From an uncultured Verrucomicrobiae bacterium (lineage in GTDB: Bacteria; Verrucomicrobiota; Verrucomicrobiia; Palsa-1439), in contig CAWIJG010000002.1 in the NCBI GenBank assembly GCA_963836315.1, positions 1,699,791 through 1,763,790 on the forward strand: a stretch of 64,000 bases of DNA, in the 5' to 3' direction. Positions 4,448 to 64,000 of the stretch are shown here, piece after piece. Each line of letters opens with the position of its first letter. The stretch's first letter is position 1. A model generated the notes under the pieces. The model was not told the origin of the DNA. It made no database searches and saw only the letters and a program-made list of their open reading frames with translations. Made by a program: the position numbers and the translations under genes.

Positions 4448-4504
4448 ACTAACTGGTCAATACCACAGGATGAATACCACTCGGATACAATTACGGAGGA
4501 CGCT

Positions 4505-11284: not shown

Positions 11285-11755
11285 TTACTGCCCCGGTGGC
11301 GGGCTCCGGTGCTTTCCGCCTCCGCCCACCCCTAGTTCCTTGTGGCTCGAGTCCTTCAACTGCGCGATGTTGGCAATCTCAGTCTTGGCGACTTCCAGTT
11401 TGTCGGCGGCGATCGCTTGCTGCAGCGCACCAATCTCCTTGATCAATGTGTCCAAATCATTGTGAAACGAGTCGAGGTACTTGGTTTGGTCCGCCCCGGA
11501 CAATTTATCCGCCCTGGGAGGGGTGAGTGTCCGGGCCTTCTGGGCGTGCTTTTGCATGTCGGCCACGAAATTCAATGTGGATGCTTTTTGGGTCGGGTCG
11601 GCATACTGGCGGCTCACCAAGCGGAAATCCTGGTTGATTCCCTCCATTTCATCGTGAAGCGGAGATTCGTGGCCTCCCGCCGCGAAAGCGTTGAGCGGCA
11701 CGAGCACAGTGGCCAACAAGACCAAGACATGAGAACTGCGGATCGTTGTTTTCAT
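11285..11755 (-). CDS. Secreted four-helix-bundle protein, cytochrome b562-like
   Basis: Signal peptide (VLVLLATVLVPLNAFAAG) followed by ~130 aa, all-helical. Segment MQKHAQKARTLTPPRADKL resembles the cytochrome b562 region (AQKATPPKLEDK) and a conserved His near the C-terminus. Weak similarity judgement made by eye. Confidence 0.4.
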   Translation of the reverse strand: MKTTIRSSHVLVLLATVLVPLNAFAAGGHESPLHDEMEGINQDFRLVSRQYADPTQKASTLNFVADMQKHAQKARTLTPPRADKLSGADQTKYLDSFHNDLDTLIKEIGALQQAIAADKLEVAKTEIANIAQLKDSSHKELGVGGGGKHRSPPPGQ

Positions 11756-11846
11756 AAGAATTTCCCGATGACACTAGATTAATGACCCAGTTGGTGGCTC
11801 CACGCAAGCACGGAACGAGTTAGCGGTTGGCAGGATGTGCCGTATC

Positions 11847-43532: not shown

Positions 43533-44314
43533 CCGAAACGCCTCCAGTGCCCCGACCGTTGACATTGCTTTCCGTGGTGCTTCCCGCGCGGGACGAAGAG
43601 GGGTGCATTTGCTCCACCGTGGAGCATCTGCACGTCGAATTGCGACTGCGCAATGTGCCGCACGAGATCATCGTGGTGGATGACGGCAGCACGGACGCGA
43701 CATGGCGATTACTTCTCGAACTGCAGCAGCGGGTGCCCACGCTGAGACCGGTTCAAAACACCGGGCTGCATGGGATTGGCCGAGCAATCATTTGTGGACT
43801 GGACGCCATGCGAGGCGACGCAGGGGTGATCATGATGGCCGACGAGTCGGACGACTGTCGTGATGTGGTGCGTTATTGGGTCGAATTGAACAAGGGGTTC
43901 GACTGCGTCTTCGGCAGCCGGTTTATCAAGGGTGGCGGGGTGATCGACTACCCCCCGCACAAGCTTGTGTTGAATCGTCTGGCCAATTATTTCCTCCGGA
44001 TTCTGTTCCGCATTCGGCTCAACGACACCACGAATGCGTTCAAAGCCTATCGCAAAGAGGTGATTATCGGCTGTCGTCCGCTGATCTCGCCGCATTTCAA
44101 CCTGTTAGTGGAACTTCCGTTGAAGGCGATCGTGCGTGGCTATACCTGGACGGTGATTCCCATCACGTGGCGCAATCGTCGCACCGGTGAGGCAAAGCTC
44201 AAGATCAAGGAGATGGGCAGCCGCTACCTGTTCATCTGTCTCTACGTCTGGCTGGAAAAGTATTTCAGCCAGGGCGACTACAAGAAACACGGCCAAAACT
44301 CATCCAACTGCTGA
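43529..44314 (+). CDS. GT2 polyprenyl-phosphate sugar synthase (DPM1/ArnC-like, soluble type)
   Basis: From MTETPP. LSVVLPARDEE...IIVVDDGSTD...MMADESDD (GT-A DXD). Resembles dolichol-/undecaprenyl-phosphate glycosyltransferases. No C-terminal TM domain. Confidence 0.75.
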   Translation: MTETPPVPRPLTLLSVVLPARDEEGCICSTVEHLHVELRLRNVPHEIIVVDDGSTDATWRLLLELQQRVPTLRPVQNTGLHGIGRAIICGLDAMRGDAGVIMMADESDDCRDVVRYWVELNKGFDCVFGSRFIKGGGVIDYPPHKLVLNRLANYFLRILFRIRLNDTTNAFKAYRKEVIIGCRPLISPHFNLLVELPLKAIVRGYTWTVIPITWRNRRTGEAKLKIKEMGSRYLFICLYVWLEKYFSQGDYKKHGQNSSNC

Positions 44315-44347
44315 AACCCCCGGCATCGTGGATTGCGGCGGTGTGGG

Positions 44348-45970
44348 TCAGGGAATCTCCTTGATGAGTATATCGTCATTCTGAAACAAAGTCTTCCAAC
44401 CATCCGCGACATGCGTCAGATGCAAGTGATAGGTCTCCCGCGCCAACCGGGCCTGTCCGGGATTGATCACTTGGACGGCATGGAGCAAGGGAGATTCACT
44501 TATCATAACCAGTTTGTTGTACCCGAGTTCTTTGATCCTCGCCAGGTTCGCGGGGTTTTCTAGAAACTCAGTGCCCCAAATGCTCAATCCCTTCCGGTTC
44601 GTCAGCAGAAACTCGTTGCCACCCCATCCGCCGTTCTGCACCAGCAGGCGGTCCGATTCGTTGGTGTACTTTTGGATTAGCGCCGCGATTTGGCGCGGGT
44701 ACGGATCGTATTCTTCGACAACCTTTATGCCCAGCAGTCCTTGAATCAAAGACAAGCCCAACAGGACGGCGGCGGCACCGACCCAAAGGCGTTCCCTTGA
44801 CAGGACGCTCGGCATCGCGAGGGCCTCAAAGTCCACCACTGCCTGTGCACAAAGCATGGCGATTGCCGGCGAATACATCAGGTAGTAGTGGCGATGGTGA
44901 AGAACAAGATGGGAAAAGATCATCGTTGTCAGGACATCTCCCAACAGCCAGTACTTGGACACGCTACCGCGCTTGCCGAACAAGAGCGCGTATCCCAGCA
45001 GCCCGACGAGAACCAGGCTGCCAAAGCAACAGTTCAGGATCCTCCAACAAGCTTTACCCCAGATCGCCGGAGAGAGACGGTAGTGCCAGTCTCCGAAGTA
45101 CCAAAAAACCATTTGCGGATCGGACAGGCGAAGATCAACCAGGGGAAACTCCGCTTGGGTGACGCAAGAATTTGTATGCCTCGTCCATGCGGCGAACGCG
45201 CTGGCCGCCACCAACCCCGCTGTCCCCAAAAGCAACCAGTGCCGATGGGATTGTCGGTGGAACCGAAGAAGCAGGAAAAACGCGGCAAGTCCTGCCGCCA
45301 TGAAAAAAGGCAGTTTTGAGGTGGCTGAAACCGCCCCTGATAGACACGCGAGTGCCCACCAGAATGCGTTCGGGTGTTGAAGGAGCTTCACGGCGAAGTA
45401 TAAGAACCACACCATGCTGGCAAGCGAGAATCCATCCGTACCCGCGACGCCCGAGTAAAAGAAAACAATCGGCTGAGCCAGAAAGAACACTAAGGTCCAC
45501 GCCGCGCAGCGCCTGCCAAGGTACTCGCGGGACACTTGGTAGAGTGGCCACAGGCAGGTGAAGAACAAGATAAGCGAGGTGATATTCCCCCACCCGAACC
45601 ACGGGCCGCAAAGCTTGAAAACCAGGGCGGTGGCGGCCTGCCAGAGGGGAAATTCCTGTGGAGTCGGCGTCTGCGAAGCATTGAAACCGACGATGACGGG
45701 TCGCAGAAGATCAATCCTTGTCCGGGCGTAGCGCAAAGCCGCACCCAGATGCTGATCGCGATAAAGTGGATAGCCCGCCCGGGCACTGGCTATATGAAAC
45801 AGGCAGGCAGCCACTGCAAAGAAGGCGGCCACAAGCAACAGTAGCTTGGTTCCGTTCTGCCGGGGTTTGTCGTCAATCATGGAATTTGGCCTGTCCTGCG
45901 AACACTTCGCATCCCATTCCGATGAGCTTGGAGCCCACAGAATACCCGCCCTTGCCGGATTTGCCAGCAA
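44348..45970 (-). CDS. GT-C fold membrane glycosyltransferase, ArnT/PMT-like (GT39/GT83-type)
   Basis: 540 aa, ~11 TM helices in the N-terminal 2/3, plus a ~180-aa C-terminal periplasmic domain. First periplasmic loop after TM1 (YPLYRDQHLGAALRYA) resembles the ArnT/PMT family. The start may instead be the internal MIDDKPRQ (45880). Confidence 0.5.
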   Translation of the reverse strand: MLANPARAGILWAPSSSEWDAKCSQDRPNSMIDDKPRQNGTKLLLLVAAFFAVAACLFHIASARAGYPLYRDQHLGAALRYARTRIDLLRPVIVGFNASQTPTPQEFPLWQAATALVFKLCGPWFGWGNITSLILFFTCLWPLYQVSREYLGRRCAAWTLVFFLAQPIVFFYSGVAGTDGFSLASMVWFLYFAVKLLQHPNAFWWALACLSGAVSATSKLPFFMAAGLAAFFLLLRFHRQSHRHWLLLGTAGLVAASAFAAWTRHTNSCVTQAEFPLVDLRLSDPQMVFWYFGDWHYRLSPAIWGKACWRILNCCFGSLVLVGLLGYALLFGKRGSVSKYWLLGDVLTTMIFSHLVLHHRHYYLMYSPAIAMLCAQAVVDFEALAMPSVLSRERLWVGAAAVLLGLSLIQGLLGIKVVEEYDPYPRQIAALIQKYTNESDRLLVQNGGWGGNEFLLTNRKGLSIWGTEFLENPANLARIKELGYNKLVMISESPLLHAVQVINPGQARLARETYHLHLTHVADGWKTLFQNDDILIKEIP

Positions 45971-51406: not shown

Positions 51407-52993
51407 TCAGTTCCCCAGGTTCCCGGGACGCAAAGCGAAACGGGGAACGGTTGCCGGCTGCGGTAAACGGATCGGTTCCGTTGCCGGAGCGGTTGCGGAG
51501 GGGGGATACCTCTCCGCCATGCCAAGGATCAGAACCAGCAGGCCCGTAAGAAGCAACATCTGGGGTACGTCAGCATCATAAGCGCCAAAAATCAATGTGA
51601 AATGGAACGGTATCCAGACCAACTGAACGGCCAAAAAAACCGCCGCGGGAAACAGGGGCGAGCCGCGGCACCGGCCAACACATTTTACGGAGTAGACCGC
51701 CGCGGCGATCATCCACGCATAGTACAGAACCAGTCCGATGACTCCCGCGAAGCGAATCGTGGTCAATGGACCGTTGTGAAGGTTGCCCGTTACAGTAAAC
51801 CAATCGAAGGTGTGGGACGAGAACGCCATCAAATTGAAGTCGCTTTCAGTGACACCAAAACCGTCACCCGTCCACCAGTTCTTGATCACGCCTTCGCTAA
51901 GAATGGTGCGCCACCACGCAAAGCGCCCCTCCGAACTTTCTCTGGCTTCGTCCTTGACGACTTCGGTCCACTCGCCGGGCAGAAAGGCGAGTGCTCGTTG
52001 GGCGGTCAAGGGCAATTGGAAAAAGCGACCCTGGCCGAAGATCAGGATCCCGACGAATAACGTGCCGACGGCCCCCACCAGGACCATGTGACGCCAGCTG
52101 CGTTGGAATATCGAAGCGAGCACGACCGACACCATCGCGTAGGCCAGCATATTGCGGAAACCCGAAGCCAGGATGCCCGCGATGGCCAGTAGAAACAGAT
52201 AGCACCGCCACCGCAGCGGATTAAAGAGTGTTTGCGGCGGGTAATAGGCCACCAGAATCTGCACCAGCATCAGGCCGAAACCGCCCAGTTGCATGAATCG
52301 TCTGATCTCCGGCTCCCCCGTCCTCACCGAAGCGAAGAGGCTTGAGGTGTCGATGCCCCCATAGAAGGGCAGAATAAACCTTGCAGTGGACGGAAAGATG
52401 TACACGATCACGTTGATTGCAGTGACAAGGACCATTCCCCCCAACATCCAAAGCGGAGCTTTGGAAACGCTCTGGTAGGATTCGGGCAAATGCACGATCA
52501 CCCAATATGCGAACAGGGCAAGTAACATGTTGATGTAGGGACGTGCGCCCATCGTCTCGGCACCGAGCGCCCGCACTCCTGCGGGGTGCAACACAAATGT
52601 GAAGGCAATATAGGCGCAGTTGACGGCCACGAGTGTTTCCAATATGCCCCAGGGCCGGCGAGCGTTGCTGCCAATCAGGACGCGATAGGTGATATACCCG
52701 CACATCGCGAGCAAGATCGAGATGTCATGGATTGAAGCTGGTACGGGAAGCACGTAGGTACTGCCCGTGATGTACCAACAAACGAGAATCAGCAGCCAGG
52801 CATTTCGTTGCAGTCCCACGGCCACCAAGGTCGCTAGGATCACCCCCCCCAAGATTCCGAGCATGAGCATCTGCTGGTCCGCAATCCAGAAAGATACGGC
52901 AATCGCTACGGCGAAGCCAATGGTCAGAACGGTCCACCGACGGATGTACTCGGGGGCCAGCAGAGGGTTCTGTATAATGTCGAAAAGTTTCAT
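51407..52993 (-). CDS. O-antigen polymerase/ligase family membrane protein (Wzy/WaaL-like)
   Basis: ~12 TM with a large periplasmic loop near the C-terminal third (EWTEVVKDEARESSEGRFAWWRTIL). Start taken at MKLFDI; the ORF-track extension to 53101 is unlikely. Confidence 0.6.
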   Translation of the reverse strand: MKLFDIIQNPLLAPEYIRRWTVLTIGFAVAIAVSFWIADQQMLMLGILGGVILATLVAVGLQRNAWLLILVCWYITGSTYVLPVPASIHDISILLAMCGYITYRVLIGSNARRPWGILETLVAVNCAYIAFTFVLHPAGVRALGAETMGARPYINMLLALFAYWVIVHLPESYQSVSKAPLWMLGGMVLVTAINVIVYIFPSTARFILPFYGGIDTSSLFASVRTGEPEIRRFMQLGGFGLMLVQILVAYYPPQTLFNPLRWRCYLFLLAIAGILASGFRNMLAYAMVSVVLASIFQRSWRHMVLVGAVGTLFVGILIFGQGRFFQLPLTAQRALAFLPGEWTEVVKDEARESSEGRFAWWRTILSEGVIKNWWTGDGFGVTESDFNLMAFSSHTFDWFTVTGNLHNGPLTTIRFAGVIGLVLYYAWMIAAAVYSVKCVGRCRGSPLFPAAVFLAVQLVWIPFHFTLIFGAYDADVPQMLLLTGLLVLILGMAERYPPSATAPATEPIRLPQPATVPRFALRPGNLGN

Positions 52994-53299
52994 TACCGGG
53001 GGCGTCTTCCAGCATTCAGCGTACCCGGACTTTACATGTGCCCTCGTCAACCTGCAAGTGCCTCGGAAAGAAATCTGCTGGCAGGGAGGATCCTTGGCCA
53101 CAGCCCGCAGGATTTATGCGATTCGGCGCCGAATCAGAGTGGGAATTCCTGCCAGGCGCTTTCGGGCCGCACATTGAAACTTGGGCTTGAAAAGGCATTT
53201 GATGAACCTATACCGGCTGTGCTAGGAATCAGCCTGGCCCCGCCCATGAGAATGCCCGGGGATCGGAAGGCAATATCCTGAGCGTCGGAGCCGGATGAC

Positions 53300-54481
53300 G
53301 TGATGACAGCTACAACGGTTGAAGTTTCTGTAGTGATCCCGTGTTTGAATGAGGCGCGGTCCATCGCCTTTTGTGTGGACAAAGCCTTGGCCGGGTTCAA
53401 AGCCGGGGGCATCGCCGGTGAAGTAATCGTGGCCGACAACGGTTCGACGGACGGTTCACAGCAGATTGCCATGCAGCATGGGGCGCGTGTCGTAGTCGTC
53501 GCGCTGAAAGGGTATGGACACGCCTTGCGGACGGGCATCGAGGCCGCGTGGGGGCAGTTCATCATCATGGGCGACGCCGATGACAGTTACGATTTCTCGG
53601 AGGCGCCGCGGTTTGTAGCCCAATGGCGTGAAGGATGGGAAGTGGTGATGGGCAATCGGTTTGCGGGCGAGATCAAGGCAGGCGCGATGCCCTGGCACCA
53701 CAGGTATATCGGCAACCCGGTTTTGTCGGGTTTGTTGCGGATATTGTTCCACGCTCACATTGGTGATTCGCATTGCGGGATGCGGGGGTTCACCAAGTCG
53801 GTGTATGAGCGAATGGATTTGCGGACCACCGGCATGGAATTTGCCAGCGAGTTTGTCATCAAGGCTGCCAAGCTCCAGGTGCGCATGACGGAGATCCCCA
53901 TCACTCTCTGGCCCGACAAACGCGGGCGGCCTCCGCATCTGCGCAGTTTTCGCGATGGCTGGCGCCACCTGCGTTTCATGCTGCTGTACGCTCCCAATTG
54001 GTTGTTTCTCGGCCCCGGTGGAGCGTTAATGACGGTCGGACTGGCGCTGGTCGTCTGGCTCCTGCCGGGACCGCGTTGGATCGGCCAGGTGCGGTTTGAC
54101 ATTCACACGATGTTCTTTGGGGTTCTCTTTACGTTACTGGCGATGCAGATTCTATCGATCGGACTGTTTGCCAAGATTTTCTCGTACACCGAGCGATTTG
54201 ATCATTCCAACGTCGGATTGAGCCGCTGGCTGCGGCGGCTGCCGCTGGAAAGCGGGCTGGTGGCCGGAACGGCGCTGGCAATCGTGGGCTTCGTCGGAAA
54301 TGTGGCCATCTTTTGGAAGTGGAAACAAGGGGGATTTGGGGCATTGTCGGAAATGCGATGGCTGTTGTTTTGGTCGATGTTGTTTTTCATCGGGGCCCAG
54401 ATCGTGTTTTCATCTTTCTTTATGAGCATGCTCGGCGTCAGCCGCGGAACCTATGTTGGCGACAAAGAGTTTCAGTCATGA
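53300..54481 (+). CDS. GT2 polyprenyl-phosphate glycosyltransferase with C-terminal TM domain (ArnC/GtrB/CsbB-like)
   Basis: VSVVIPCLNEARSI...VIVADNGSTDGS...IIMGDADDSYD GT-A motifs. Four C-terminal TM helices (LFLGPGGALMTVGLALVVWLL...). Architecture of undecaprenyl-phosphate sugar synthases. Confidence 0.8.
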   Translation: MMTATTVEVSVVIPCLNEARSIAFCVDKALAGFKAGGIAGEVIVADNGSTDGSQQIAMQHGARVVVVALKGYGHALRTGIEAAWGQFIIMGDADDSYDFSEAPRFVAQWREGWEVVMGNRFAGEIKAGAMPWHHRYIGNPVLSGLLRILFHAHIGDSHCGMRGFTKSVYERMDLRTTGMEFASEFVIKAAKLQVRMTEIPITLWPDKRGRPPHLRSFRDGWRHLRFMLLYAPNWLFLGPGGALMTVGLALVVWLLPGPRWIGQVRFDIHTMFFGVLFTLLAMQILSIGLFAKIFSYTERFDHSNVGLSRWLRRLPLESGLVAGTALAIVGFVGNVAIFWKWKQGGFGALSEMRWLLFWSMLFFIGAQIVFSSFFMSMLGVSRGTYVGDKEFQS

Positions 54482-55787
54482 CGGGAGCGGTGTGCCAACC
54501 GTATTAGTGACCGGGGCCGCGGGTTTCATTGGCCGAAATGTTGTCACCCGCCTGCTGCAACGCGGCTGGCACGTGAAGGCGATGGTGCGGCGCTTGGAAA
54601 CGTCTGAGGGGTTGCCGAAAAATGATCTTCTCGAAATCGTCCAGGCCGACATGCGGGATGTGGAGGCGCTACGCCGGGCGGTGCAAGATACAGATGCCGT
54701 CGTTCATCTCGCCGCCGCGAAGACCGATGAGAAGGATAGCGAAGAGATCAATGTCGGCGGCGCACGGAATTTGGTGGCCAACTGCCGCGCAACAGGGTGT
54801 TTGCGCATAGTCAACATCAGCACGCAATCGGCAAAAATCCTTCGCAAGGGGTTGTACGCGCGAACCAAGAGTGCAGCCGACGAGGTGTTTCACGGTTCAG
54901 GGTTGGCGGTGACCACCCTGCTGCCGAGTATCGTTTACGGGGATGAAACCAGCGGCGTGTTCGGTACTGTGCTGGGTTTCGTGCAGAGGCTGCCAGTGGT
55001 GCCGGTTCTGGGGGATGGTCGGTGGATTTCGGCGCCAGTCTATGTGGGTGATGTGGCCGAAGCGATTCTCGCCTGCTTGGAACACGACAAGACGATCGGT
55101 CAACGCTACGATCTGGGCGGTCCCGACCAACTCTCGTTCGACGATTTCATCGACCGCATTTGTGCTGCCCGGTCCATCCGGCGACCGAAGTTGCACATCC
55201 CATTTGGCCTGTCACTCCTGGCGGCCCGGGTCGCGACGCGGCTGTTGCCCAAGCCGGCGATCACCATCAGCAATGTGCTCGGGTCCAACCAGAATACCCA
55301 CATCGATATCGGACCTGCCCGGCGAGACTTCGGATTTCAGCCGATGGATTTTCAAAGCGGCTTGGCACGCGTGCTCGGAGCCGTAACCGCCGAAGATCGC
55401 ATTCTTGCCACGGAAAGCACCACAATCGCGCGGTATTTGATTGGGCGGGCACCCTCGCTCGAATTGCAACACCGATATGCGGCCGCGTGCCGGGTGCGAT
55501 TGCGCGAGGGCGCGGACGTCGAACTGGAGTTCGCCCGCCGCCATCCGTACTCCTGGCCGTTCTTGGATGCCGCCACCGGGCTGCTCCGCCCGTATTCAGG
55601 CGTGCGAGAGCGAGTGTTTCTGATGGCTGCGGTGCTGGAAGCGTCACCGGAACACGCGGAGTTCTTCCTCAAACCGCCGGAGAAGCCACTGAAGTTAATA
55701 ACCCGTGTGGCCTGGCAGGGAATCCGTAGCGTGGTGTTGGCTGCGGTTGGTGTTCCACTTTTGTTCTGGGCGAGGCGCAGAGCATGA
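54453..55787 (+). CDS. NAD(P)-binding SDR-type epimerase/reductase with ~140-aa C-terminal extension ending in a TM helix
   Basis: VLVTGAAGFIGRNVVTRL Rossmann motif, YARTKSAAD (YxxxK). C-terminal hydrophobic segment VVLAAVGVPLLFW. Overlaps the GT2 end. Alternative GTG start at 54489. Confidence 0.7.
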   Translation: MLATKSFSHDGSGVPTVLVTGAAGFIGRNVVTRLLQRGWHVKAMVRRLETSEGLPKNDLLEIVQADMRDVEALRRAVQDTDAVVHLAAAKTDEKDSEEINVGGARNLVANCRATGCLRIVNISTQSAKILRKGLYARTKSAADEVFHGSGLAVTTLLPSIVYGDETSGVFGTVLGFVQRLPVVPVLGDGRWISAPVYVGDVAEAILACLEHDKTIGQRYDLGGPDQLSFDDFIDRICAARSIRRPKLHIPFGLSLLAARVATRLLPKPAITISNVLGSNQNTHIDIGPARRDFGFQPMDFQSGLARVLGAVTAEDRILATESTTIARYLIGRAPSLELQHRYAAACRVRLREGADVELEFARRHPYSWPFLDAATGLLRPYSGVRERVFLMAAVLEASPEHAEFFLKPPEKPLKLITRVAWQGIRSVVLAAVGVPLLFWARRRA

Positions 55788-57400
55788 ACGCGTTCTGCGA
55801 TGTAATCGTGGTCGGTTCCGGCGCAAGCGCCGTGCACGCGGCCCGAGCAGTAGTGGAAGCAGGACGTACCGTGGTGATGATCGACGTGGGACACGAGGAC
55901 ACGACGTACGGAACCCTGATCGCGCAGGCTCCCTTTGCCCAGTTACGCCGTTCTGATCGGGGCCAGCACCGTTATTTCCTCGGAGACGAGTTTGAAGGCG
56001 TTCCTCTGGGCGTGTTGGGTGCCGGACCGCAGGTCACGCCGCCGCAGCAATACGTGGTGCGGCATGTCGACGCGCTTACCCCCACGCGGGCCCCCGATTT
56101 CGCGGCGCTCGAAAGCGTGGCGCTCGGCGGATTGGGTGGCGCGTGGGGCGCGGTGTGCTTTCCATTTCTAGAACACGAATTGTCACAGTGCGGGTTGCCG
56201 GCGGCTGAGATGCGTGAGCACTACGAGGTCATTGCCCGCCGCATCGGGATTAGCGGCGATCGCGATGATCTTGAACCGTTGCGCGGTCGGATCGAGCCGC
56301 TACAGGCACCATTGGAAATTGACACCAACGCCTCTCTGATTCTCGCCCGGTACGAACGCCGAAAGAAGGCGCTTCGCGGCGAGGGGGTTTATGTCGGGAA
56401 ACCATTATTGGCGGTACTCAGCCAGGCAATGAACGACCGCCAAGCAAACCCCTATTACGATATGGACTTCTGGTCGAATGCCGGCAACAGCGTCTATCGC
56501 CCGCAATTGACAGTGCGCCAGTTGGAGAGGTCTCGCAACTTTTCATATCGCCGACCCTATCTGGTGGACAGCTTTGTGGAGACGGTTGATGGTCGGGTTA
56601 GTGTCCAAGCTCGTGCGTTGAACGCCGGGGGCGCCGAAACGTTTGAAGCGCGCCGCCTGATCCTGGCGGCCGGTGCGTTGGGTACCGCGCGGATCGCCTT
56701 GCGATCGCTCGGTCAATACGACATGCCTGTGCCGCTCACGTGCAACGCACACGGTTATATCCCCTGCCTGCATTACCGCAATCTTGGCCAGGCACCCGCC
56801 GACCGCTGTCATAGCCTCGCGCAATTGACCATGATCTACGATCCCACGGGGGATCGTCAGCATCTCGTGCAGGGCCAGCTGTACTCGTATCGTTCGCTGC
56901 TATTGTTTCGCCTGCTGAAGGAATTGCCGTTGCCCCAATCAGAGTCTCTGCGCATCATGCGTGAACTGGCGCCCAGCATGGTGATCTGGGTGATCCAGCA
57001 CGAAGATCACTTGAGCCCCGACAACCACTGCGTACTGCGACGGAGTCCGGGCGGAGGCGGTGACTACCTGGATATTGCGTGGCAGGAGTCCACCGTTGTA
57101 AGAAAGTCCCAGCAATCGAGCGAACGGGCAATGATGCGTGCTATGCGGCGGTTGGGTTGCTGGCCGTTGCGTCCCGTGCATCCCCAGCACGGATCGAGTG
57201 TCCACTACGCCAGCACGTTGCCTTTCAGCACTGTCGACAAACCACTGACCACAGAACCGTCAGGCCGATTGCGGGGGACGAACGCGGTGTACATCGGCGA
57301 TGGCGCGGCCTTTGCCTACCTGCCTGCAAAGGGGTTGACCGGCACCCTGATGGCCAACGCCAACCGCATTGGCGAGTTCGTGGCGCGAAGCATGGGCTAG
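55784..57400 (+). CDS. GMC-family FAD-dependent oxidoreductase
   Basis: N-terminal FAD Rossmann DVIVVGSGASAVHAARAVVEAGRTVVMID. C-terminal GMC active-site region (HYASTLPF...VYIGDGAAFAYLPAKGLTGTLMANANRI). 538 aa. 4-nt overlap with the upstream SDR gene. Confidence 0.75.
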   Translation: MNAFCDVIVVGSGASAVHAARAVVEAGRTVVMIDVGHEDTTYGTLIAQAPFAQLRRSDRGQHRYFLGDEFEGVPLGVLGAGPQVTPPQQYVVRHVDALTPTRAPDFAALESVALGGLGGAWGAVCFPFLEHELSQCGLPAAEMREHYEVIARRIGISGDRDDLEPLRGRIEPLQAPLEIDTNASLILARYERRKKALRGEGVYVGKPLLAVLSQAMNDRQANPYYDMDFWSNAGNSVYRPQLTVRQLERSRNFSYRRPYLVDSFVETVDGRVSVQARALNAGGAETFEARRLILAAGALGTARIALRSLGQYDMPVPLTCNAHGYIPCLHYRNLGQAPADRCHSLAQLTMIYDPTGDRQHLVQGQLYSYRSLLLFRLLKELPLPQSESLRIMRELAPSMVIWVIQHEDHLSPDNHCVLRRSPGGGGDYLDIAWQESTVVRKSQQSSERAMMRAMRRLGCWPLRPVHPQHGSSVHYASTLPFSTVDKPLTTEPSGRLRGTNAVYIGDGAAFAYLPAKGLTGTLMANANRIGEFVARSMG

Positions 57401-58248
57401 CGCAGAGACTGCTGGGGAATCCTCAACTCGGTGTGCCACCAACCATACGGGGCGACGACGATGTCTTTCTCAGGTTTCAACAACCGATTCCCCAGGCGCC
57501 GCGCCAGACGCAACACTTGGTATCCACCGTGCAACATCCAGAGCGTTGGCCCATTGTCCAACCAGCGCAGGCGGCGCAGGCCGAGATAGTGTCGTTGCAG
57601 CGCGCGGAATTCCTGGCGACCGCGCGCATGATGAACCGAACTCACGTTGGCTTCATGCCAGCGGAAGCAAGCCAGTGGCTGCGGCAGATGTTCAAATCGG
57701 AAACCAGCCTGCGCCAGGCGCAGGTAATACTCCAAGTCCATGGCAACCTTCTGCGATGCGTCAAGCAAGTGACCGGCGTCGACCAGTTCACGACGGTAGA
57801 AGGTGGCAGTCGACGGGATGAATGTCCCGTAAAAGAGGAGCATCCAATAGCTGAAGTCGCCTTCGCGCTTCTTCTTCACAATATTGCCCTGCTTGTCCAC
57901 GAAGTCAGAATCGCCGTAGATCACATCCGCTTGGGGGTGGGCTTGTGCAAACTGGGCTGCTTTGGCAAACGTTTTCGGCAACAGGTAATCGTCAGCGTTC
58001 AACCACATCAACCAGTCACCGGTAGCTTGGCGGAACCCCTTGTTGATCGCATCCGTTTGTCCCCGGTCCGGTTCGGAAGTCCACCGGATGTGCGGATACG
58101 ACTTCAAGATCGCCACCGTTTCGTCTGTGGAACAGCCGTCCACGACGATGTGCTCCACCTCGACATCCGCCTGGGCCCGCACGCTCTCAATACAGTCGCG
58201 GATGAAACACCCTTGGTTCAGGCTCGGAGTGATCACGGAAAACTTCAT
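57397..58248 (-). CDS. Glycosyltransferase family 2
   Basis: From MKFSVITPSLNQGCFIRDCIESV...HIVVDGCSTDET...WLNADD (DXD). 283 aa. The longer N-terminal extension in the ORF track is unlikely. Confidence 0.8.
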   Translation of the reverse strand: MKFSVITPSLNQGCFIRDCIESVRAQADVEVEHIVVDGCSTDETVAILKSYPHIRWTSEPDRGQTDAINKGFRQATGDWLMWLNADDYLLPKTFAKAAQFAQAHPQADVIYGDSDFVDKQGNIVKKKREGDFSYWMLLFYGTFIPSTATFYRRELVDAGHLLDASQKVAMDLEYYLRLAQAGFRFEHLPQPLACFRWHEANVSSVHHARGRQEFRALQRHYLGLRRLRWLDNGPTLWMLHGGYQVLRLARRLGNRLLKPEKDIVVAPYGWWHTELRIPQQSLR

Positions 58249-58496
58249 CGCCCCCAATCTATCCGTCCGGGCCGTCGTCGCCAAACAAAAACAAGCCGGC
58301 TGTCCGACGGATACTCTGGTGTGTCCGAAGAGAATTGTCAGAAAGCTCATTGTGAATAGGCACCCAATTTGCTAGAAGAATAGGTCTGATTGTCACTCGA
58401 CTGGTTGGCGAAGCAGAGGGCATCGGGAAGTGCGGGCTCTCGACGGCCCGGTTTGGAAACAGCCTGTCGGTTAGTCCCGCTTAGGAATGCGATAAC

Positions 58497-59474
58497 ATGT
58501 CCGATACGGGTTCACCCTTAGAAACCACGCGTGCACACCGTCCGATACTCGTAACCGGGTCACACCGATCCGGGACAACCTGGGTAGGGAAAATCATCAG
58601 TTCGTCCCCGACGGTGGGCTATATTCAGGAACCGTTTAACATCCACTGCCGACCCGGGCGATGCACTGCGCGATTTCCGTACTGGTTCCAATACATATGT
58701 GAAGAGAACGAAGAACAGTACCTCCATCATATCGAACAGACCCTTCAGTTCCGCTATCACGTTGGGGAGGAAATCGGGGTCATGCGCGGGCCTCGGGACG
58801 CGGCCCGGATGGTGCGGGACCTCTGGCGATTTCAGTTTCATCGGATCAACCGCCATCGCCCGCTGCTCCGTGATCCCTTTGCGTTCTACTCGGCGGAATG
58901 GCTCGCCAAACGGTTTGCCTTCGATGTGGTGGTTCTAATCCGTCAGCCATCTGCGTTTGTGGCGAGCGTCAAGCTGCTCCAGTGGGAGCATCCATTCGAT
59001 CATTTCCTCAAACAACCCCTCTTGATGCGCGATCATCTGGGCGCGTTTGAAGGCGAGATCCGTGAGTTTGCGGAGCGGAAGCAGGCCGTCGTAGATCAGG
59101 CCATTCTGCTATGGCGATTGACTCACAGCGTTATCATCCGTTATCGCGACAGGCATCCGGAATGGATCTTCGCCCGTCACCGCGATCTTTCGTTGAACCC
59201 GTTGTCGGAATTTCCCCAGATTTTTGCGCGGCTGAACCTGCCCTACGGAGTCCGTGAAGAGATCAATACGCGCCATTACTGCATGGCGGAGGCAAGACGA
59301 ACCAGATATGTTTGGGATGACGTCGTTCGCAACTCGGCGCGGAACGTGAGCTTATGGCGAAAAGTATTGACCGATGAGGAGTTGGAGCGGGTGCGTGAAA
59401 GGTGCTACGACATCGCGCAACACTTCTTTTCGAAGGAGGAAATGCCTGCCATCGGGCTCGTGCCGGGAGCGTAG
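58497..59474 (+). CDS. PAPS-dependent sulfotransferase family protein
   Basis: 5'-PSB P-loop-like motif ILVTGSHRSGTTWVGKI near the N-terminus, and a 3'-PB-like region (VVVLIRQPSAFVASV). 325 aa. Confidence 0.65.
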   Translation: MSDTGSPLETTRAHRPILVTGSHRSGTTWVGKIISSSPTVGYIQEPFNIHCRPGRCTARFPYWFQYICEENEEQYLHHIEQTLQFRYHVGEEIGVMRGPRDAARMVRDLWRFQFHRINRHRPLLRDPFAFYSAEWLAKRFAFDVVVLIRQPSAFVASVKLLQWEHPFDHFLKQPLLMRDHLGAFEGEIREFAERKQAVVDQAILLWRLTHSVIIRYRDRHPEWIFARHRDLSLNPLSEFPQIFARLNLPYGVREEINTRHYCMAEARRTRYVWDDVVRNSARNVSLWRKVLTDEELERVRERCYDIAQHFFSKEEMPAIGLVPGA

Positions 59475-59989
59475 AATGGCGGGTCGCGGACGTGCCAGCC
59501 CGGCTCCGCTTCTTCGCGACGAACGGAATCGCTGCGGCGGCACTGCCAAGCGCTCCCGCTGTCCCTTCCTCAAGGCGTGACTTTGGGGCGCGGCTTTTGT
59601 ATTTTGAACCTCGCCAGACTTGAGATCGGCGCCGGCATGACCTCTGGGACGGTAAGAATGCTCACGAGCACCACAAGACCAAAAGAAGTGATTATCGCCA
59701 CGCGGATGCGACCGCAGAGGGACGCGGGGGTTCAAGTGCGCTTCAACGTTTCTCAGGTCGATGAATGGGCTTCCAAAGGGAAGATCCGCTCGGGGGACAC
59801 CCTGCACCGGGCCATTCGACGACGCGAGCGGGACGCCCTGCCACGGCTGGATGGGATTGCGTTTATCTCCGATTTTGTTGGGGGGAAGTGTCCCGCCGCA
59901 TTCTCGATGCGAAGCGGGTTCCAGCGGTGGTTATCTCGAGTCTTATCGAGAAAACAGATCAACCAAATTCTTCCTCACCGGGGAACGAT

Positions 59990-60184
59990 TTGATCAAAAT
60001 TATTGGCACGTTGGGGCCGCGCAACAACCAACAGTTCTTGCTCAAGGTGCTGGCCAAGAAGCTGGGCAAACAATACAGGCTTTCCTTATTTGACGAGTCC
60101 GTCATGGGACAACGCCTTTTGAGCTTCTTTTTGCGGTCAAACGGCGTCTTTGGGTGGGGATTCAACTCCTTCTCGGAATCATGA
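59990..60184 (+). CDS. Possible small ORF (64 aa) translationally coupled (ATGA) to the YfhO gene
   Basis: LIKIIGTLGPRNNQQFLLKVLAKKLGKQYRLSLFDESVMGQRLLSFFLRSNGVFGWGFNSFSES. AT-richer than surroundings. TTG start only. Could be a 5' gene fragment or spurious. Confidence 0.2.
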   Translation: MIKIIGTLGPRNNQQFLLKVLAKKLGKQYRLSLFDESVMGQRLLSFFLRSNGVFGWGFNSFSES

Positions 60185-62592
60185 AATCGCGACTATGCAC
60201 TATGGGCTGGCTGGCTTTGCTCTCCGGGGTGATCCTGTTCTTCTTTCACGAGACGATTATGGACGGGTTCAGCTTGGTACCAACCGACGTACTTAACCGC
60301 TTGATGGCACCCTACAACCACGGGGTTCAGGACTTCCGCGTGCAGAACCACTACACATGGGATATTGTGCGCATGGATTACGCGTTCGCCGAGTTCGCGC
60401 AGGAACGAATGCGTGCGGGCGAAGTGCCACTGTGGAACCCGTATATCTACGGTGGGCACCCGCACATGGCCGTGAGCATGCACGGTGTATTCAACCCTTT
60501 CAAAGTGCTCTATTTGTTTTTGTCTGCCGAGCGCGCCTTTAGTCTCGTCATCGTGTTGGAGTTGTGGCTGGCCGGCTTGTTGATGTTCGCGTTCTTGCGG
60601 GAACTGGGGCGGTCGCACCCCGCGGCGTTTCTGGGAGGTGTCGCGTACGCGCTGAACAGCGGGTTCCTGATGTGGTACTGGAGGGTGCCGAGCACCATGG
60701 CGTGGGCGCCGCTGATACTGATGCTGGTGGAACGCTCGGTCCGTCGAGAGGCGTGGTGGGGATATGCCGTCGGGGCAGGAGGCATACTGGGTCTGGCGAT
60801 GATCAGCGGCAGCATCCAAGCGGCCTCACATCTGGGGTTCCTCTGTGTCATCTACATGGTTGGCACAGTGGTTTCTCGCGACAACGAGAGCCGGGCCAAA
60901 TCGCTGCAACGAGCCGGCGTGGTTCTACTGGTTGGCATGCTGCTGTATGCGGTGCAACTGTTGCCGACAACCGAGTTGGTGCTGAATGGAGGCATACACC
61001 GGATTCAGGAGACAGGGCCGAAAATGAACTTGCGCCGCACGGTTCTGGACATTCCCTTTCTGTTGACGTTTATGTTCCCGGGGTTGGCCGGCTCGACGGA
61101 ATCCTATTCGTTGGGCAAGGCGTTTGGGGTCGACATTATAGACTTCACCAGCTACGTCGGAATCGTGCCGTTCGTGTTGTTTGTGATTGGGGCAGTGACC
61201 GCGCGAGTACGGCCGGCCCGCTGGTTGGTGCTGACGGCTGGCGCCGTGGTCGTCATCCTCGTATTCACACCATTGGCGCGGTTTCTGTATTATCGGTTCT
61301 TCATTGTCGCCACCTTTGCCATGTCGGTGCTGGCGGCCTATGGGATGGACGCATTGCTGGATGCATCCGCTGCCCACAGCCGGACGATTGGTCGATGGCT
61401 GTTCGGGATGATGGTCGTGGGGCTGGCGGTAGCGATCGGGCTGCTCGCCGTGCAATGGATTGTTGCCACGAACTGGAACCGGTTGTTGGAGGCCGGCCAA
61501 AAATACATCTTGAGCCATGAGGGCACGGCGACGTTCAGTATTCGGCAGTGGCAATTGGACCGCGTGGAATTGTTTCTGCGGCATTACCGGATCACGAATG
61601 TGGTTTTTTGGCTGCCGTTAACATTTCTGGCTGGCACTGTCTTGGGATGGCGGGCGTATGTGCGTGGGTGGCTGAGCCGAAATGCATTCGTTGCCGCACT
61701 GCTCATCTTCACCGTGACGGATTTGACGGTGCTGGGGCGAGAAATGGTGCCGCAGGTTGATCTGCGGCAGTTTCCACTGTATCCAGAGATGGAGACGATC
61801 CGAACGGTGCAGGCAGATCCCGGCCTTTTCCGCGTGGAGCAGTGGGAGCCGGGGAACACCCTCTTTTTTGCGCAAAACGTGCTGTTCGCGTATGGCCTAT
61901 CCACCATCAGGAACGAAGATTCCATGGTACCCGAGAACGGGCTCTCACTGCCGTACCGTTTGGACGGGCAGTGGACCGCCCTCGCTGATCTTCTCAACAT
62001 CAAGTACATTCTTGTCCCAGACCCGGTCACGCTCCCAAAAGACCGCTTTTCGTTCGTTCAGCAGAGCCAAGGCGTCCGGCTATACCGCAACGACCGGTGC
62101 CTGCCACGGCTGCAGTTTATTCCTGGCTGGAAGGCGGCGCGGAGCCATGAGGAAGTATTGACAGCGATGAGCGCGCCGACTTTTGACCCGCGCCAGGTGG
62201 TGTTCATCGAAACCGGTTCGGCACCGCCGATCGCCGGTGCACCGACCGAACCAGGCTTGTCGACAACCCCGGCCACGGTGCAAGTGGAACAATACGCGCC
62301 GCGTCGAGTACGCGCGCATGTCCACTGCACCCAACCGGGTGTGGTCCTGTTGGCGGATGCGTTTTATCCTGGTTGGTACGCGACGGTTGACGGCGCGCCC
62401 GCGCCCATCTATCGCGCCGATTACGTGATGCGGGCGGTATTCGTGGCTGCGGGCGACCACGAGATCGAGTTTCACTACGTACCGCTGTCGTTTCGACTGG
62501 GCGCGACGATCAGCGGCGTCACGTTGGCCGGCCTAGCGCTAATGGGGCTATTGCGCGGGATGCGTCGGCGGATTGCCCGCGGGAAAGCATGA
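60181..62592 (+). CDS. yfhO: YfhO-family polytopic membrane protein (GT-C-like glycosyltransferase candidate) with C-terminal periplasmic domain and terminal TM anchor
   Basis: ~800 aa, ~14 TM helices. Conserved YfhO N-terminal region (DIVRMDYAFAEFAQERMRAGEVPLWNPYIYGGHPHMA). C-terminal beta-rich soluble domain, then a final TM (GVTLAGLALMGLL). Start taken at MKSRLC (60181) rather than the GTG at 60154. Confidence 0.7.
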   Translation: MKSRLCTMGWLALLSGVILFFFHETIMDGFSLVPTDVLNRLMAPYNHGVQDFRVQNHYTWDIVRMDYAFAEFAQERMRAGEVPLWNPYIYGGHPHMAVSMHGVFNPFKVLYLFLSAERAFSLVIVLELWLAGLLMFAFLRELGRSHPAAFLGGVAYALNSGFLMWYWRVPSTMAWAPLILMLVERSVRREAWWGYAVGAGGILGLAMISGSIQAASHLGFLCVIYMVGTVVSRDNESRAKSLQRAGVVLLVGMLLYAVQLLPTTELVLNGGIHRIQETGPKMNLRRTVLDIPFLLTFMFPGLAGSTESYSLGKAFGVDIIDFTSYVGIVPFVLFVIGAVTARVRPARWLVLTAGAVVVILVFTPLARFLYYRFFIVATFAMSVLAAYGMDALLDASAAHSRTIGRWLFGMMVVGLAVAIGLLAVQWIVATNWNRLLEAGQKYILSHEGTATFSIRQWQLDRVELFLRHYRITNVVFWLPLTFLAGTVLGWRAYVRGWLSRNAFVAALLIFTVTDLTVLGREMVPQVDLRQFPLYPEMETIRTVQADPGLFRVEQWEPGNTLFFAQNVLFAYGLSTIRNEDSMVPENGLSLPYRLDGQWTALADLLNIKYILVPDPVTLPKDRFSFVQQSQGVRLYRNDRCLPRLQFIPGWKAARSHEEVLTAMSAPTFDPRQVVFIETGSAPPIAGAPTEPGLSTTPATVQVEQYAPRRVRAHVHCTQPGVVLLADAFYPGWYATVDGAPAPIYRADYVMRAVFVAAGDHEIEFHYVPLSFRLGATISGVTLAGLALMGLLRGMRRRIARGKA

Positions 62593-62796
62593 CGTGTCCA
62601 CGCTCGCTTTCTCGCGAATACGTCACGGTGCCGTGGCGAGATTCATCTCATTTGATGGCTACGCGCCACCGTCGGCCGGAATGATTCTGGCCAGTCTCGA
62701 CAGGTCTTGGTTGCTGGGATAGAGTGGCGCCACGATGCCAAGAATCGTTCAGTGTGTCACGCCTCACCGAATGAATATTACTCCCGTGCGTTGAGG

Positions 62797-64000
62797 ATGA
62801 AGGTCTCCATCATCACGCCGTCTTTCAATCAGGCGCGATTTCTGCCGGAGACGCTGCGTTCCGTTCGCGGGCAAACCCACCCGCACATTGAGCACATCAT
62901 CGTGGATGGAGGATCAACGGACGGTTCGGTGGATATTCTTCGGGCGGCGCCTAGCATTCGTTGGGTGTCGGAGAGTGATCGTGGACAAGTGGATGCGATC
63001 AATAAGGGCTTCTCACTCGCCACTGGTGAGGTTCTCGCGTGGTTGAACTCCGATGACACGCTGGATCCCGATGCCGTTCGCCTCGCCGTAGAGGCGCTGC
63101 AGCGCACGGGCGCGGATCTGGTGTACGGCGACCTGCGCATTATTGATGCGGAGGGTACGCACATACGGATGTTCTATGGCATCCCGTTTGACTATCGGAC
63201 GCTGCTATACGGCATCAATTACATCGGGCAGCAGACGGCATTTTCCCGTCGCACGCTTCTGGGAAACGCCGGTCCACTGCGCGCTGAGTATGACAATGGT
63301 TTTGACTACGAGTTGTGGCTGCGCATGGCCCGGTACGGGCGGCTGGTGTATGTGCCGCAGGTGCGCGGGCAAATTCGCTGGCATGTCGACGCCAAGTCGG
63401 TCGTCCGCGCGCAACGGACATGGACCGATACAGACCGGATTCGGCGGGAATACTGGCGTACGGGCGGATTGCCGGCGTTCTTGGCGCGGCGGCCCTGGGC
63501 CGGGGTCGTCAACTGGTATTACCGTCTGAAGCGCATTTGGCGGATTCGGAAAGCGTCGCGGACGCGAGAACGGCCGCGCATTCTGGTGTTGGGCTATCTG
63601 CCGCCGCCGATTCACGGCCCGGCCATCACGTTTCAATCGCTGTTACGGTCTCCGTTTGCCCGGCAGTTCGATGTGAGCTTTGTGAACCTGAACGTGGTGC
63701 GAGACTACCGGGAGTTGGAGGTATTTCACTGGCGCAAGCTGGCCCGGCTGGGCCGGCTGATCGGGACCGAATGGTGGCGCCTCACGAGCCAGCAGTTCGA
63801 CTTTGTATTGTACCCGATCTCGATCAACCGCAACGCTTTTCTCAAGGATGCGCTCTTGCTGGCCATCGTTCGGGCATTTCGCGTGCCGGTTGTCCTCTGT
63901 GGCCTCGGCAACAATCTGCCGGAGTTTCGCGATAAATCCCCGCGCTGGCTGCGGTGCGTGATCGACTGGACGGTTCGTGGCGCGGTGGCGGCGACGGTGC
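62797..64000 (+). CDS. Bifunctional glycosyltransferase: N-terminal GT2 domain fused to a GT4-like (GT-B) domain; 3' end outside window
   Basis: MKVSIITPSFNQARFLPETLRSV...HIIVDGGSTDGS...WLNSDD (GT2). From ~aa 270, RPRILVLGYLPPPIHGPAITFQSL...FRVPVVLCGLGN resembles a GT4 N-terminal domain. The ORF is open to the window end. Confidence 0.7.
   Translation, partial: MKVSIITPSFNQARFLPETLRSVRGQTHPHIEHIIVDGGSTDGSVDILRAAPSIRWVSESDRGQVDAINKGFSLATGEVLAWLNSDDTLDPDAVRLAVEALQRTGADLVYGDLRIIDAEGTHIRMFYGIPFDYRTLLYGINYIGQQTAFSRRTLLGNAGPLRAEYDNGFDYELWLRMARYGRLVYVPQVRGQIRWHVDAKSVVRAQRTWTDTDRIRREYWRTGGLPAFLARRPWAGVVNWYYRLKRIWRIRKASRTRERPRILVLGYLPPPIHGPAITFQSLLRSPFARQFDVSFVNLNVVRDYRELEVFHWRKLARLGRLIGTEWWRLTSQQFDFVLYPISINRNAFLKDALLLAIVRAFRVPVVLCGLGNNLPEFRDKSPRWLRCVIDWTVRGAVAATV

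Follow-up and report, generated by a model that had tools for sequence, protein, structure and literature searches.

How would a bacterium use a flavoenzyme and a reductase that are encoded in one operon with a membrane glycosyltransferase? The question is raised by a 64,000-nucleotide stretch of DNA from an uncultured Verrucomicrobiae bacterium (assembly GCA_963836315.1, contig CAWIJG010000002.1, positions 1,699,791 to 1,763,790), referred to below as the window. A first-pass annotation, made from the sequence alone, had noted there a family 2 glycosyltransferase (here GT2a), a short-chain dehydrogenase/reductase (SDR), a flavoenzyme of the GMC superfamily and a YfhO homologue, and had proposed that they remodel and transfer a lipid-linked sugar. 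In the reading that we prefer, and in which we place about even confidence, GT2a, the SDR with a small domain X fused to it, and the GMC enzyme form a membrane-associated cassette at the cytoplasmic face that makes and tailors a polyprenyl-phosphate-linked monosaccharide. The principle of tailoring a sugar on its carrier is already known; the novelty would lie in the flavoenzyme family and the small subunit that carry it out.

The three-gene operon and its proteins

All four open reading frames (ORFs) lie where they had been annotated, and the overlapping stops and starts reported for the first three are confirmed. The SDR ATG (54453) lies 29 nt upstream of the end of the GT2a gene (TGA at 54479-54481), so that the two frames overlap, and an ATGA at 55784-55787 is common to the SDR stop and the GMC start (a 4-nt overlap). 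Three overlapping genes imply translational coupling. The operon is terminated by a convergent gene on the minus strand (57397-58350) for GT2b, a soluble-type GT2 (PF00535 at 1e-27; TuaG-like). A scan for promoters and terminators between 52.9 and 62.8 kb returned counts equal to the shuffled expectation.

GT2a (53300-54481, plus strand; 393 aa) consists of a GT-A domain (PF00535, 1.7e-22) followed by four C-terminal transmembrane (TM) helices, which a simple hydropathy scan predicts within residues 237-373. Its DAD motif sits in IIMGDADDSYD and has the DxD form. Among the NCBIfam profiles it gave partial matches to AglJ (1e-38), dolichyl-phosphate hexose transferase (1e-22), PpgS (3e-22) and ArnC (5e-13), and its top sequence matches in the PDB were ArnC (4e-14) and the dolichyl-phosphate mannose synthase DPMS (8e-11). 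Every NCBIfam score falls under the equivalog cut-off, and therefore a specific sugar cannot be assigned. Orthologues encoded beside the same SDR and GMC genes elsewhere are annotated GT2_TM_C (PF26629). These matches support the earlier assignment of GT2a as a predicted polyprenyl-phosphate-type membrane GT2 with a C-terminal TM region, and not as an enzyme of the soluble-acceptor type.

The second gene (54453-55787, plus strand) encodes a 444-aa protein that had been annotated as an SDR, which holds for the first of its two modules. Residues 1 to about 310 (54453-55382) form an extended SDR (PF01370, 3.7e-26); the remaining ~130 aa (residues ~311-444; 55383-55787) form a separate, all-alpha domain, X, and we write SDR~X for the fusion. 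The closest NCBIfam matches of the SDR, all partial, are HpnA (9e-28), OleD (8e-23) and the sterol demethylase SdmB, and its nearest neighbours by PDB sequence and by Foldseek are the complex-I protein NDUFA9 and then GalE/RmlB-type enzymes. The cofactor motif TGxxGxxG reads VTGAAGFIG. Residues G21, G24 and G27 and the triad S123/Y135/K139 are invariant in fused and stand-alone SDRs alike, and the two forms align as one family over their full length. The Arg that follows beta-strand 2 weakly hints, by the general SDR rule, that the cofactor may be NADPH.

In an AlphaFold2 model of the 444-aa protein (pLDDT 89.5), X is a bundle (pLDDT ~80-96) of seven helices within residues 313-443. The last of these (412-443, 32 residues) is hydrophobic or amphipathic and is studded and flanked by Arg and Lys, and we presume it to be a membrane anchor. 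Conserved features of X are an N-terminal RYLL, an IDAg and an ILE[AT]sP.y..FL motif. Among 1.84 billion cluster representatives, a full HMMER scan found 653 relatives of X at E<=1e-3, mainly stand-alone proteins of 130-150 aa, with a few fused to SDRs. No significant match came from Pfam, searched with the window copy and with 12 members one at a time, or from a profile search of PDB sequences; the best sub-significant ones were DPM2 (E = 0.065, one member) and complex-I NB8M (0.15).

The third gene (55784-57400, plus strand) encodes a divergent 538-aa FAD oxidoreductase of the GMC superfamily. In Pfam the window protein gives only weak N-terminal FAD-motif matches and neither GMC_oxred_N nor GMC_oxred_C; it has at least 617 homologues, many of which, at 47-62% identity, carry PF05199 (GMC_oxred_C), and HMMER aligns three GMC motif blocks to cellobiose dehydrogenase. 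The FAD motif GxGxxG occupies residues 11-16 (DVIVVGSGASAVHAA at residues 6-20) and aligns to the cellobiose dehydrogenase N-terminus, with G11, S12 and G13 invariant among 27 homologues. In the alignment the likewise invariant H474 falls opposite the SNHW histidine of cellobiose dehydrogenase, which we take to be the catalytic His of that enzyme. An AlphaFold2 model built on an alignment of 27 sequences (pLDDT 86.8, pTM 0.90) has only GMC enzymes among its top 50 Foldseek matches in the PDB (E to 8e-25, TM-score 0.63-0.75), led, at TM-scores of ~0.65-0.75, by FAD-glucose dehydrogenase alpha, the large subunit of fructose dehydrogenase and bacterial pyranose 2-oxidase/C-glycoside 3-oxidase. 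When the family profile was run against PDB sequences, carbohydrate-oxidising GMCs alone stood on top and none of the cholesterol, choline or alcohol oxidases appeared at E<0.01. The GMC assignment is thus upheld, and the enzyme does not group with choline or alcohol dehydrogenases. Source annotations of the GMC and SDR homologues read "hypothetical", "choline dehydrogenase-like flavoprotein" and "NADH dehydrogenase / nucleoside-diphosphate-sugar epimerase", and the closest named homologues come from metagenome-assembled genomes (MAGs) of Verrucomicrobiia/Verrucomicrobiae.

Because its FAD motif begins at residue 6, the GMC enzyme has no signal peptide, which together with the dependence of the SDR on NAD(P) implies that the chemistry is cytoplasmic. 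A periplasmic role for the GMC enzyme on the finished glycan is ruled out by the missing signal peptide and by the fusion of X to an NAD(P)-dependent SDR.

Conservation of the cassette across phyla

The GMC alignment was used to scan GTDB genomes, one for each species; all locus counts given here are among the matches listed. These comprised 38 clear orthologous loci (33-56% identity), 2 distant paralogues and 36 unrelated GMC-like loci, the last serving as a small control set. Three loci from exact-protein look-ups brought the 38 to 41, and 3 later ones brought the total to 44 (individual loci are numbered L001 and so on). Neighbouring families were identified with tblastn, the queries being window proteins and seeds drawn from these loci; ORF calling was crude in high-GC loci. 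The loci span more than 10 phyla: Verrucomicrobiota, Beta- and "Delta"-proteobacteria, Myxococcota, Sumerlaeota, Gemmatimonadota, Bacteroidota, Acidobacteriota, Eremiobacterota, Planctomycetota, Limnocylindria, Patescibacteria and Saccharibacteria.

X lies directly upstream of GMC, adjacent or fused, in 27 of 41 loci, where the ORFs usually overlap or touch, and in most loci other than the window it is a stand-alone gene of ~135 aa. An SDR adjoins in 26 of 41. The order is permuted between two arrangements: X-GMC-SDR with an SDR of ~290 aa (Bacteroidota, Patescibacteria, Acidobacteriota, Sumerlaeota and others), and SDR~X-GMC, in which SDR and X are fused as in the window. The conserved core is X and GMC, usually with the SDR. 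The gene fusion suggests that X and the SDR work together physically, and the invariant X-GMC adjacency suggests the same of X and GMC.

Of the 41 loci, 23 have a polyprenyl-phosphate-type GT2 no more than 5 kb from the GMC gene, compared with 1 of 36 controls (Fisher p = 2e-7); among the 23 loci that have at least 5 kb on both sides, 15 do. GT2a orthologues co-vary with GMC, and are 86-87% (L082), 74% (L080), 49% (L081) and 46% (L079) identical to the window protein. In other phyla a short GT2 and a DUF2304 protein replace the GT2 with C-terminal TM helices; the short GT2s have their best matches in PpgS, PgfS, AglJ and ArnC, and DUF2304 is present in 10 of 41 loci and in none of the 36 controls (p = 1e-3). 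DUF2304 is the GacJ/Rv3632 family, members of which bind and stimulate the GlcNAc-P-undecaprenol synthase GacI and the GalNAc-P-polyprenol synthase PpgS (10.1101/180810). This cross-phylum conservation and the comparison with controls speak against chance co-location inside a big glycan cluster, a reading that we rejected.

Genes for GT-C membrane glycosyltransferases also recur near the cassette, mostly of the PMT_2 type and sometimes within the operon. PMT_2 is the commonest GT-C type beside SDR~X-GMC elsewhere (L001 and L081, in the operon; L080, L082 and L039), and L001 and L081 read GT2(GT2_TM_C)-PMT_2-SDR~X-GMC on one strand. In L081 the GMC gene is immediately followed by one on the opposite strand (11626-12381, minus) whose 251-aa product carries a 3-keto-disaccharide hydrolase domain (PF06439 at 4e-6, slightly over the cut-off), a suggestive neighbour in that it would fit a keto-sugar intermediate.

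The most compact form of the cassette occurs in the reduced genome of a Patescibacteria MAG (L018, 7506-14245), where six overlapping or touching ORFs encode, in order, a 458-aa protein of no family, a GT2 (234 aa), X (141 aa), GMC (543 aa), an SDR (280 aa) and a 593-aa multi-TM protein of no family; genes for a sugar C-methyltransferase and a DegT aminotransferase come next, on the other strand. Five Bacteroidota loci (L012, L017, L020, L029 and L034) read GT2-DUF2304-Polysacc_deac_1/DUF3473-X-GMC-SDR-GNAT-methyltransferase, followed by a 770-aa multi-TM protein with TPR repeats. In L002, X, SDR and GMC adjoin a 932-aa protein (3524-6322, minus strand) that combines a DPM1-like GT2, a multi-TM region and a C-terminal TPR region; its TM and TPR module has the same architecture as the ~770-aa Bacteroidota proteins, with an invariant FxFDD after TM helix 1. 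This architecture recalls TMTC. An hhalign comparison of the Bacteroidota TM-TPR proteins with the in-operon PMT_2 proteins gave a probability of 1.7%, so that homology is not shown, and a PDB profile search was swamped by TPR matches. At E<=1, Pfam returned nothing for the membrane halves of the TM-TPR proteins, for the large proteins of L025 (725 aa), L027 (559 aa), L018 (593 aa) and L032 (727 aa), or for the DUF6311-type proteins of L079. The TM-TPR proteins are thus candidate GT-C enzymes by their architecture, including FxFDD, and by the GT2 fusion of L002.

In L079 (1-17600), at least four paralogous membrane proteins of ~720-790 aa are encoded around an SDR~X-GMC-GT2 cassette; their DUF6311 label is a precomputed annotation that local Pfam did not reproduce. 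L039 (10001-16314) reads GMC-SDR-GT2-DUF2304-PMT_2 with a GMC paralogue only 26% identical to that of the window, and a paralogue of equal identity (26%) lies in a similar context in L037. The association with GT2 and GT-C genes may therefore extend to a wider GMC clade.

Proposed tailoring on the carrier and its rivals

What would these proteins do together? In the scheme that we propose, GT2a would load a sugar from a nucleotide sugar onto undecaprenyl phosphate. The GMC enzyme, held at the membrane via X, would oxidise a secondary hydroxyl of this sugar to a ketone, with O2 or a quinone as acceptor, and the SDR would use NAD(P)H to reduce the ketone from the other face, so that the lipid carrier would bear a rare, epimeric sugar. 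The epimerised lipid-sugar would be flipped across the membrane, where a GT-C enzyme would put the sugar on a surface glycan or protein; in the window this could be YfhO or a PMT_2 protein, and elsewhere mostly a PMT_2-type enzyme. It is from gene content and synteny alone that we infer the oxidation and reduction of a lipid-linked sugar to its epimer, together with the substrate, the oxidised position, the direction of the steps, the electron acceptor and the transferase. The kinship of the SDR with NDUFA9, an SDR of a membrane interface, counts in favour of the scheme.

More tentatively, and at somewhat less than even confidence, X, the GMC enzyme and the NDUFA9-like SDR may make up an undescribed three-component, membrane-anchored redox machine that edits sugars on the polyprenyl-phosphate carrier, and thereby a second, independently evolved DprE1/DprE2 solution that yields rare sugars without a nucleotide-activated route. 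In this reading X would serve as a new small subunit, tethering the two enzymes to the membrane or to their lipid substrate. In full-text searches of the literature we found no paper on this cassette or on a GMC/SDR pair linked to polyprenyl-phosphate-sugar synthases.

DprE1/DprE2 is the decaprenylphosphoryl-ribose 2'-epimerase of Mycobacterium and is found also in Pseudomonas pilin and O-antigen Araf systems. There, as proposed here, a flavoenzyme oxidises a hydroxyl of a polyprenyl-phosphate sugar, an NAD(P)H-dependent SDR reduces it and a GT-C enzyme uses the product, and the genes are clustered with a lipid-sugar synthase. The components differ. DprE1 has a VAO/PCMH-type FAD fold and the flavoenzyme of the cassette a GMC fold; DprE2 belongs to the classical SDRs, in contrast to the extended NDUFA9/HpnA-like SDR; and the DprE donor is made by a phosphoribosyltransferase from phosphoribosyl pyrophosphate (PRPP), whereas a DPM1/ArnC-type GT2 takes this place here. 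No polyprenyl-phosphate phosphoribosyltransferase was seen in the neighbourhoods examined, and X has no counterpart in DprE1/DprE2. The first-pass annotation had suggested just such a logic of oxidation and then reduction, analogous and not homologous to DprE1/DprE2, and given the type of the GT2, the likeness to carbohydrate GMCs and the conserved association, it remains the best reading.

A second parallel is the O antigen of Citrobacter youngae O2, where the SDR ORF13 was inferred to convert undecaprenyl-phosphate-linked ribofuranose (undP-Ribf) to its xylofuranose counterpart (undP-Xylf) (PMC11127046). The authors of that 2024 paper on three-component glycosylation were aware of no side-chain glycosylation epimerases besides DprE1/E2 and ORF13 (PMC11127046). 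As in our scheme, a cytoplasmic SDR would there epimerise a lipid-linked sugar before flipping and GT-C transfer, and the gene is present or absent between close relatives, diversifying the glycan, which mirrors the contrast of the window and L082 with L084 described below. Unlike the cassette, the ORF13 system is a single SDR without flavoenzyme or X, and it employs a PRPP-dependent synthase, a MATE flippase and a GT-C enzyme of family GT136.

The GacI/GacJ/GacL, PpgS/Rv3632/Rv3779, CsbB/YfhO and ArnC/ArnD/ArnT systems share with the cassette a GT2 that makes a polyprenyl-phosphate monosaccharide and a GT-C enzyme that uses it outside, and the Gac and PpgS types share the DUF2304 partner found in many of our loci. 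In the ArnD and PpgS pathways the lipid-linked sugar is deformylated or deacetylated on its carrier, and the Bacteroidota cassettes carry Polysacc_deac_1. None of these four systems has an oxidoreductase pair, however, and YfhO is only sporadically linked to the cassette. The GMC enzyme itself resembles pyranose 2-oxidase/C-glycoside 3-oxidase (7qf8, 7dve, 8qve), FAD-glucose dehydrogenase gamma-alpha (8grj, 6a2u) and fructose dehydrogenase (8jej). Carbohydrate GMCs of this kind oxidise secondary sugar hydroxyls to keto sugars, and in the membrane-bound GMC dehydrogenases a small-subunit gene lies upstream of the catalytic gene, as X does here. X shows no similarity to those gamma or small subunits and has no Tat signal, and the cassette lacks a cytochrome subunit; the carbohydrate GMC dehydrogenases are periplasmic, whereas the location implied here is cytoplasmic.

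Several points weigh against the proposed scheme. All loci come from MAGs. The enrichment of polyprenyl-phosphate-type GT2s (23 of 41 loci against 1 of 36) and of DUF2304 is somewhat inflated, as the loci share phylogenetic history and also supplied the detection seeds, and 8 of the 23 loci with at least 5 kb on both flanks have no such GT2 within 5 kb. L078 consists only of X-GMC-SDR and a methyltransferase, again with no polyprenyl-phosphate-type GT2. There is no adjacent SDR in L007-L009, L011 and L033 (Myxococcota/"delta") or in L028 and L030 (Saprospiraceae), which read GT2-DUF2304-X-GMC or X-GMC alone; in these loci the reductase would be encoded elsewhere, or oxidation may be the end point. 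A two-enzyme route is not obligatory either, since a single SDR such as GalE or ORF13 can epimerise alone. The fold similarity of the GMC enzyme to carbohydrate GMCs, at 13-17% identity, cannot fix the substrate. In its active site, the second catalytic position, which we take to be Asn or His in canonical GMCs and which in cellobiose dehydrogenase is the Asn of PTGNPQGTLM, aligns to Gly517 (residues 514-521, PAKGLTGT, encoded around 57326-57340 of the window). The surrounding Lys516, Thr519 and Thr521 are invariant among the 27 homologues. This suggests an altered active site, and the chemistry may therefore differ.

Of the competing explanations, the first concerns the transferase. YfhO (60154 or 60181 to 62592, plus strand) is a GT-C membrane protein with ~12 hydrophobic segments and a PF09586 match of 1.4e-21 (77.1 bits against a gathering cut-off of 28.5), and its presence 2.7 kb downstream, as first annotated, recalls a CsbB/YfhO-type system in which YfhO would be the dedicated transferase for the remodelled lipid-linked sugar. 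We consider this possible but doubtful. It fits L077, where an SDR-GMC pair has YfhO 1.6 kb downstream, and L084 (Verrucomicrobiae MAG GCA_035541135.1, 6586-12418), which keeps GT2a (85%), the sulfotransferase-like gene (66%) and two YfhO copies (59-62%) in the order of the window, so that a GT2a-to-YfhO link within this lineage is possible. Against it, no more than 3 of 44 loci, namely the window, L015 and L077, have YfhO within 10 kb of GMC, and in the window it belongs to a separate transcription unit behind the convergent GT2b gene, with the sulfotransferase-like gene and a 139-aa ORF upstream of it. The closest relative, L082, keeps Wzy (61%), GT2a, SDR~X (82%), GMC (81%), GT2b (85%) and the sulfotransferase (72%), with Wzy, GT2b and the sulfotransferase placed as they are in the window, but in place of YfhO it has a PMT/PMT_2 protein and a 663-aa protein with a weak PMT_2 match. 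Conversely, among five YfhO-orthologue loci (49-79% identity) SDR~X-GMC occurs in none and a GT2a orthologue in one. The window also holds a PMT_2-family GT-C protein (44348-45970, minus strand; 540 aa; PF13231 at 6.4e-8), an alternative candidate transferase that is not orthologous to the in-operon PMT_2 of L001 and L081. The soluble-type GT2 encoded after YfhO (62794 onwards) was considered as a CsbB-type partner and is ruled out by its type.

The expectation in the first-pass annotation that GT2, SDR and GMC would be conserved near yfhO thus divides: their association is conserved and enriched across phyla, but yfhO has no constant part in it, and by the refuting condition that the annotation itself had set, the YfhO part of its model fails. 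Its inventory of four genes was accurate, and lacked X and the PMT_2 gene. Either YfhO or PMT-type GT-C genes, or the two together, can accompany GT2a, and we regard YfhO as a plausible, though less likely than not, acceptor-side enzyme of this window and not as a conserved partner. In L084 only 28 bp stand at the place of the window SDR~X-GMC, and the convergent GT2 differs (34% identity to GT2b). In this pattern of presence and absence, SDR~X-GMC acts like an optional insertion right after GT2a, and it looks like a tailoring insert that would diversify the donor sugar.

The active site bears on a second alternative, in which the same cassette acts on the same lipid-linked substrate with other chemistry. 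The GMC enzyme could oxidise the C6 hydroxyl to give a uronic acid, a four-electron oxidation such as choline oxidase performs, or could stop at a keto sugar, which would either be the final product or undergo amination or C-methylation. The SDR could be a decarboxylase or ketoreductase, leading to a pentose or a deoxy or amino sugar and not to a simple epimer. The non-canonical second catalytic residue and the loci without an SDR are consistent with this, as are the DegT aminotransferases (6 loci) and C-methyltransferases (Methyltransf_13/14; 6 loci) near the cassette, both of which use keto sugars, and the presence of UDP-GlcA-type decarboxylases (8vr2, 8sk0) among the fold matches of the SDR. 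Aminotransferases and C-methyltransferases, however, normally use NDP-sugars and are common in any glycan cluster, and the SDR is nearest to NDUFA9/HpnA/OleD-type ketoreductases and not to UXS or ArnA. We regard this alternative as unlikely.

The substrate might instead be soluble. The GMC enzyme and SDR would then act on a nucleotide sugar or free glycoside that feeds GT2a or other glycosyltransferases, and X would only recruit them to a membrane complex. Here the characterised structural neighbours of the GMC enzyme, all of which use soluble sugars or glycosides, the NDP-sugar epimerases and dehydratases that follow NDUFA9 among the fold neighbours of the SDR, and the setting of the operon in a large glycan cluster with many glycosyltransferases all point the same way. 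Yet we know of no GMC enzyme that acts on nucleotide sugars, and the enrichment is specific to polyprenyl-phosphate-type GT2s and DUF2304 and does not extend to glycosyltransferases generally. Moreover, a dedicated module, presumed to be membrane-anchoring, is fused to the SDR, and reduced Patescibacteria genomes keep a minimal cassette of GT2, X, GMC, SDR and a membrane protein. Soluble precursors are accordingly quite unlikely substrates.

Least probable, and in our view very unlikely, is that the GMC/SDR pair modifies a non-sugar lipid alcohol (a polyprenol, hopanoid or sterol-like lipid) that is glycosylated later, for although cholesterol oxidase is a GMC enzyme that pairs conceptually with 3-beta-HSD-type SDRs, the best partial NCBIfam matches of the SDR act on lipids (HpnA, OleD, SdmB) and the module is presumably membrane-anchored, carbohydrate GMCs dominate the profile matches with no cholesterol-, choline- or alcohol-oxidase structure significant, the 44 neighbourhoods contain no hopanoid or sterol genes, the cassette occurs in Patescibacteria and Saccharibacteria with minimal lipid metabolism, and its GT2 and DUF2304 partners are polyprenyl-phosphate-HexNAc synthases.

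The surrounding glycan cluster and wider meaning

The operon is embedded in a region (36-64 kb of the window) in which genes for GT4, GT2, SDR and acetyltransferase proteins abound. Divergent from GT2a lies a gene for a Wzy_C membrane protein resembling O-antigen ligases and polymerases (51407-53101, minus strand; PF04932 at 1e-9), which places the operon within a surface-glycan cluster. Downstream, the sulfotransferase-like gene (58497-59474, plus strand; PF13469 at 1.9e-6) is kept beside the cassette in L082, L084 and L076, a hint that the glycan made by the cluster may be sulfated. The soluble-type GT2 gene after YfhO (62794-64000, plus strand) encodes an extra C-terminal region and leaves the end of the window. 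Further upstream, a 294-aa GT2 (43430-44314), 28% identical to polyprenyl-phosphate-type GT2s, is encoded back-to-back with the 540-aa PMT_2 protein, and the two (43430-45970) look like a second possible pair of lipid-sugar synthase and GT-C enzyme. The same cluster includes genes for a DUF6625 protein (37735-38700, minus strand; 4.8e-85) and for a 536-aa protein with only faint glycoside-hydrolase matches (39253-40863, minus strand).

To our knowledge, only two kinds of enzyme reshape a sugar on its lipid carrier: DprE1/DprE2, a leading tuberculosis drug target, and the single Xylf SDR inferred recently. The window and L082 on one side and L084 on the other, which differ in the presence of SDR~X-GMC, offer a ready-made comparative test of the proposed editing. 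If the proposal is true, at least 600 proteins now called "hypothetical" or "choline dehydrogenase-like" and an orphan small protein of ~650 clusters would gain a function, and the glycoengineering toolbox would gain additional enzymes. Novel sugars would be predicted on the surfaces of uncultured Verrucomicrobiota, Bacteroidota, Acidobacteriota, Myxococcota and members of the candidate phyla radiation, and, as a widespread cassette of GMC, SDR and X linked to polyprenyl-phosphate-sugar synthases and GT-C transferases would indicate, sugar editing at the level of the carrier would be a general route to glycan diversity and not a mycobacterial speciality.

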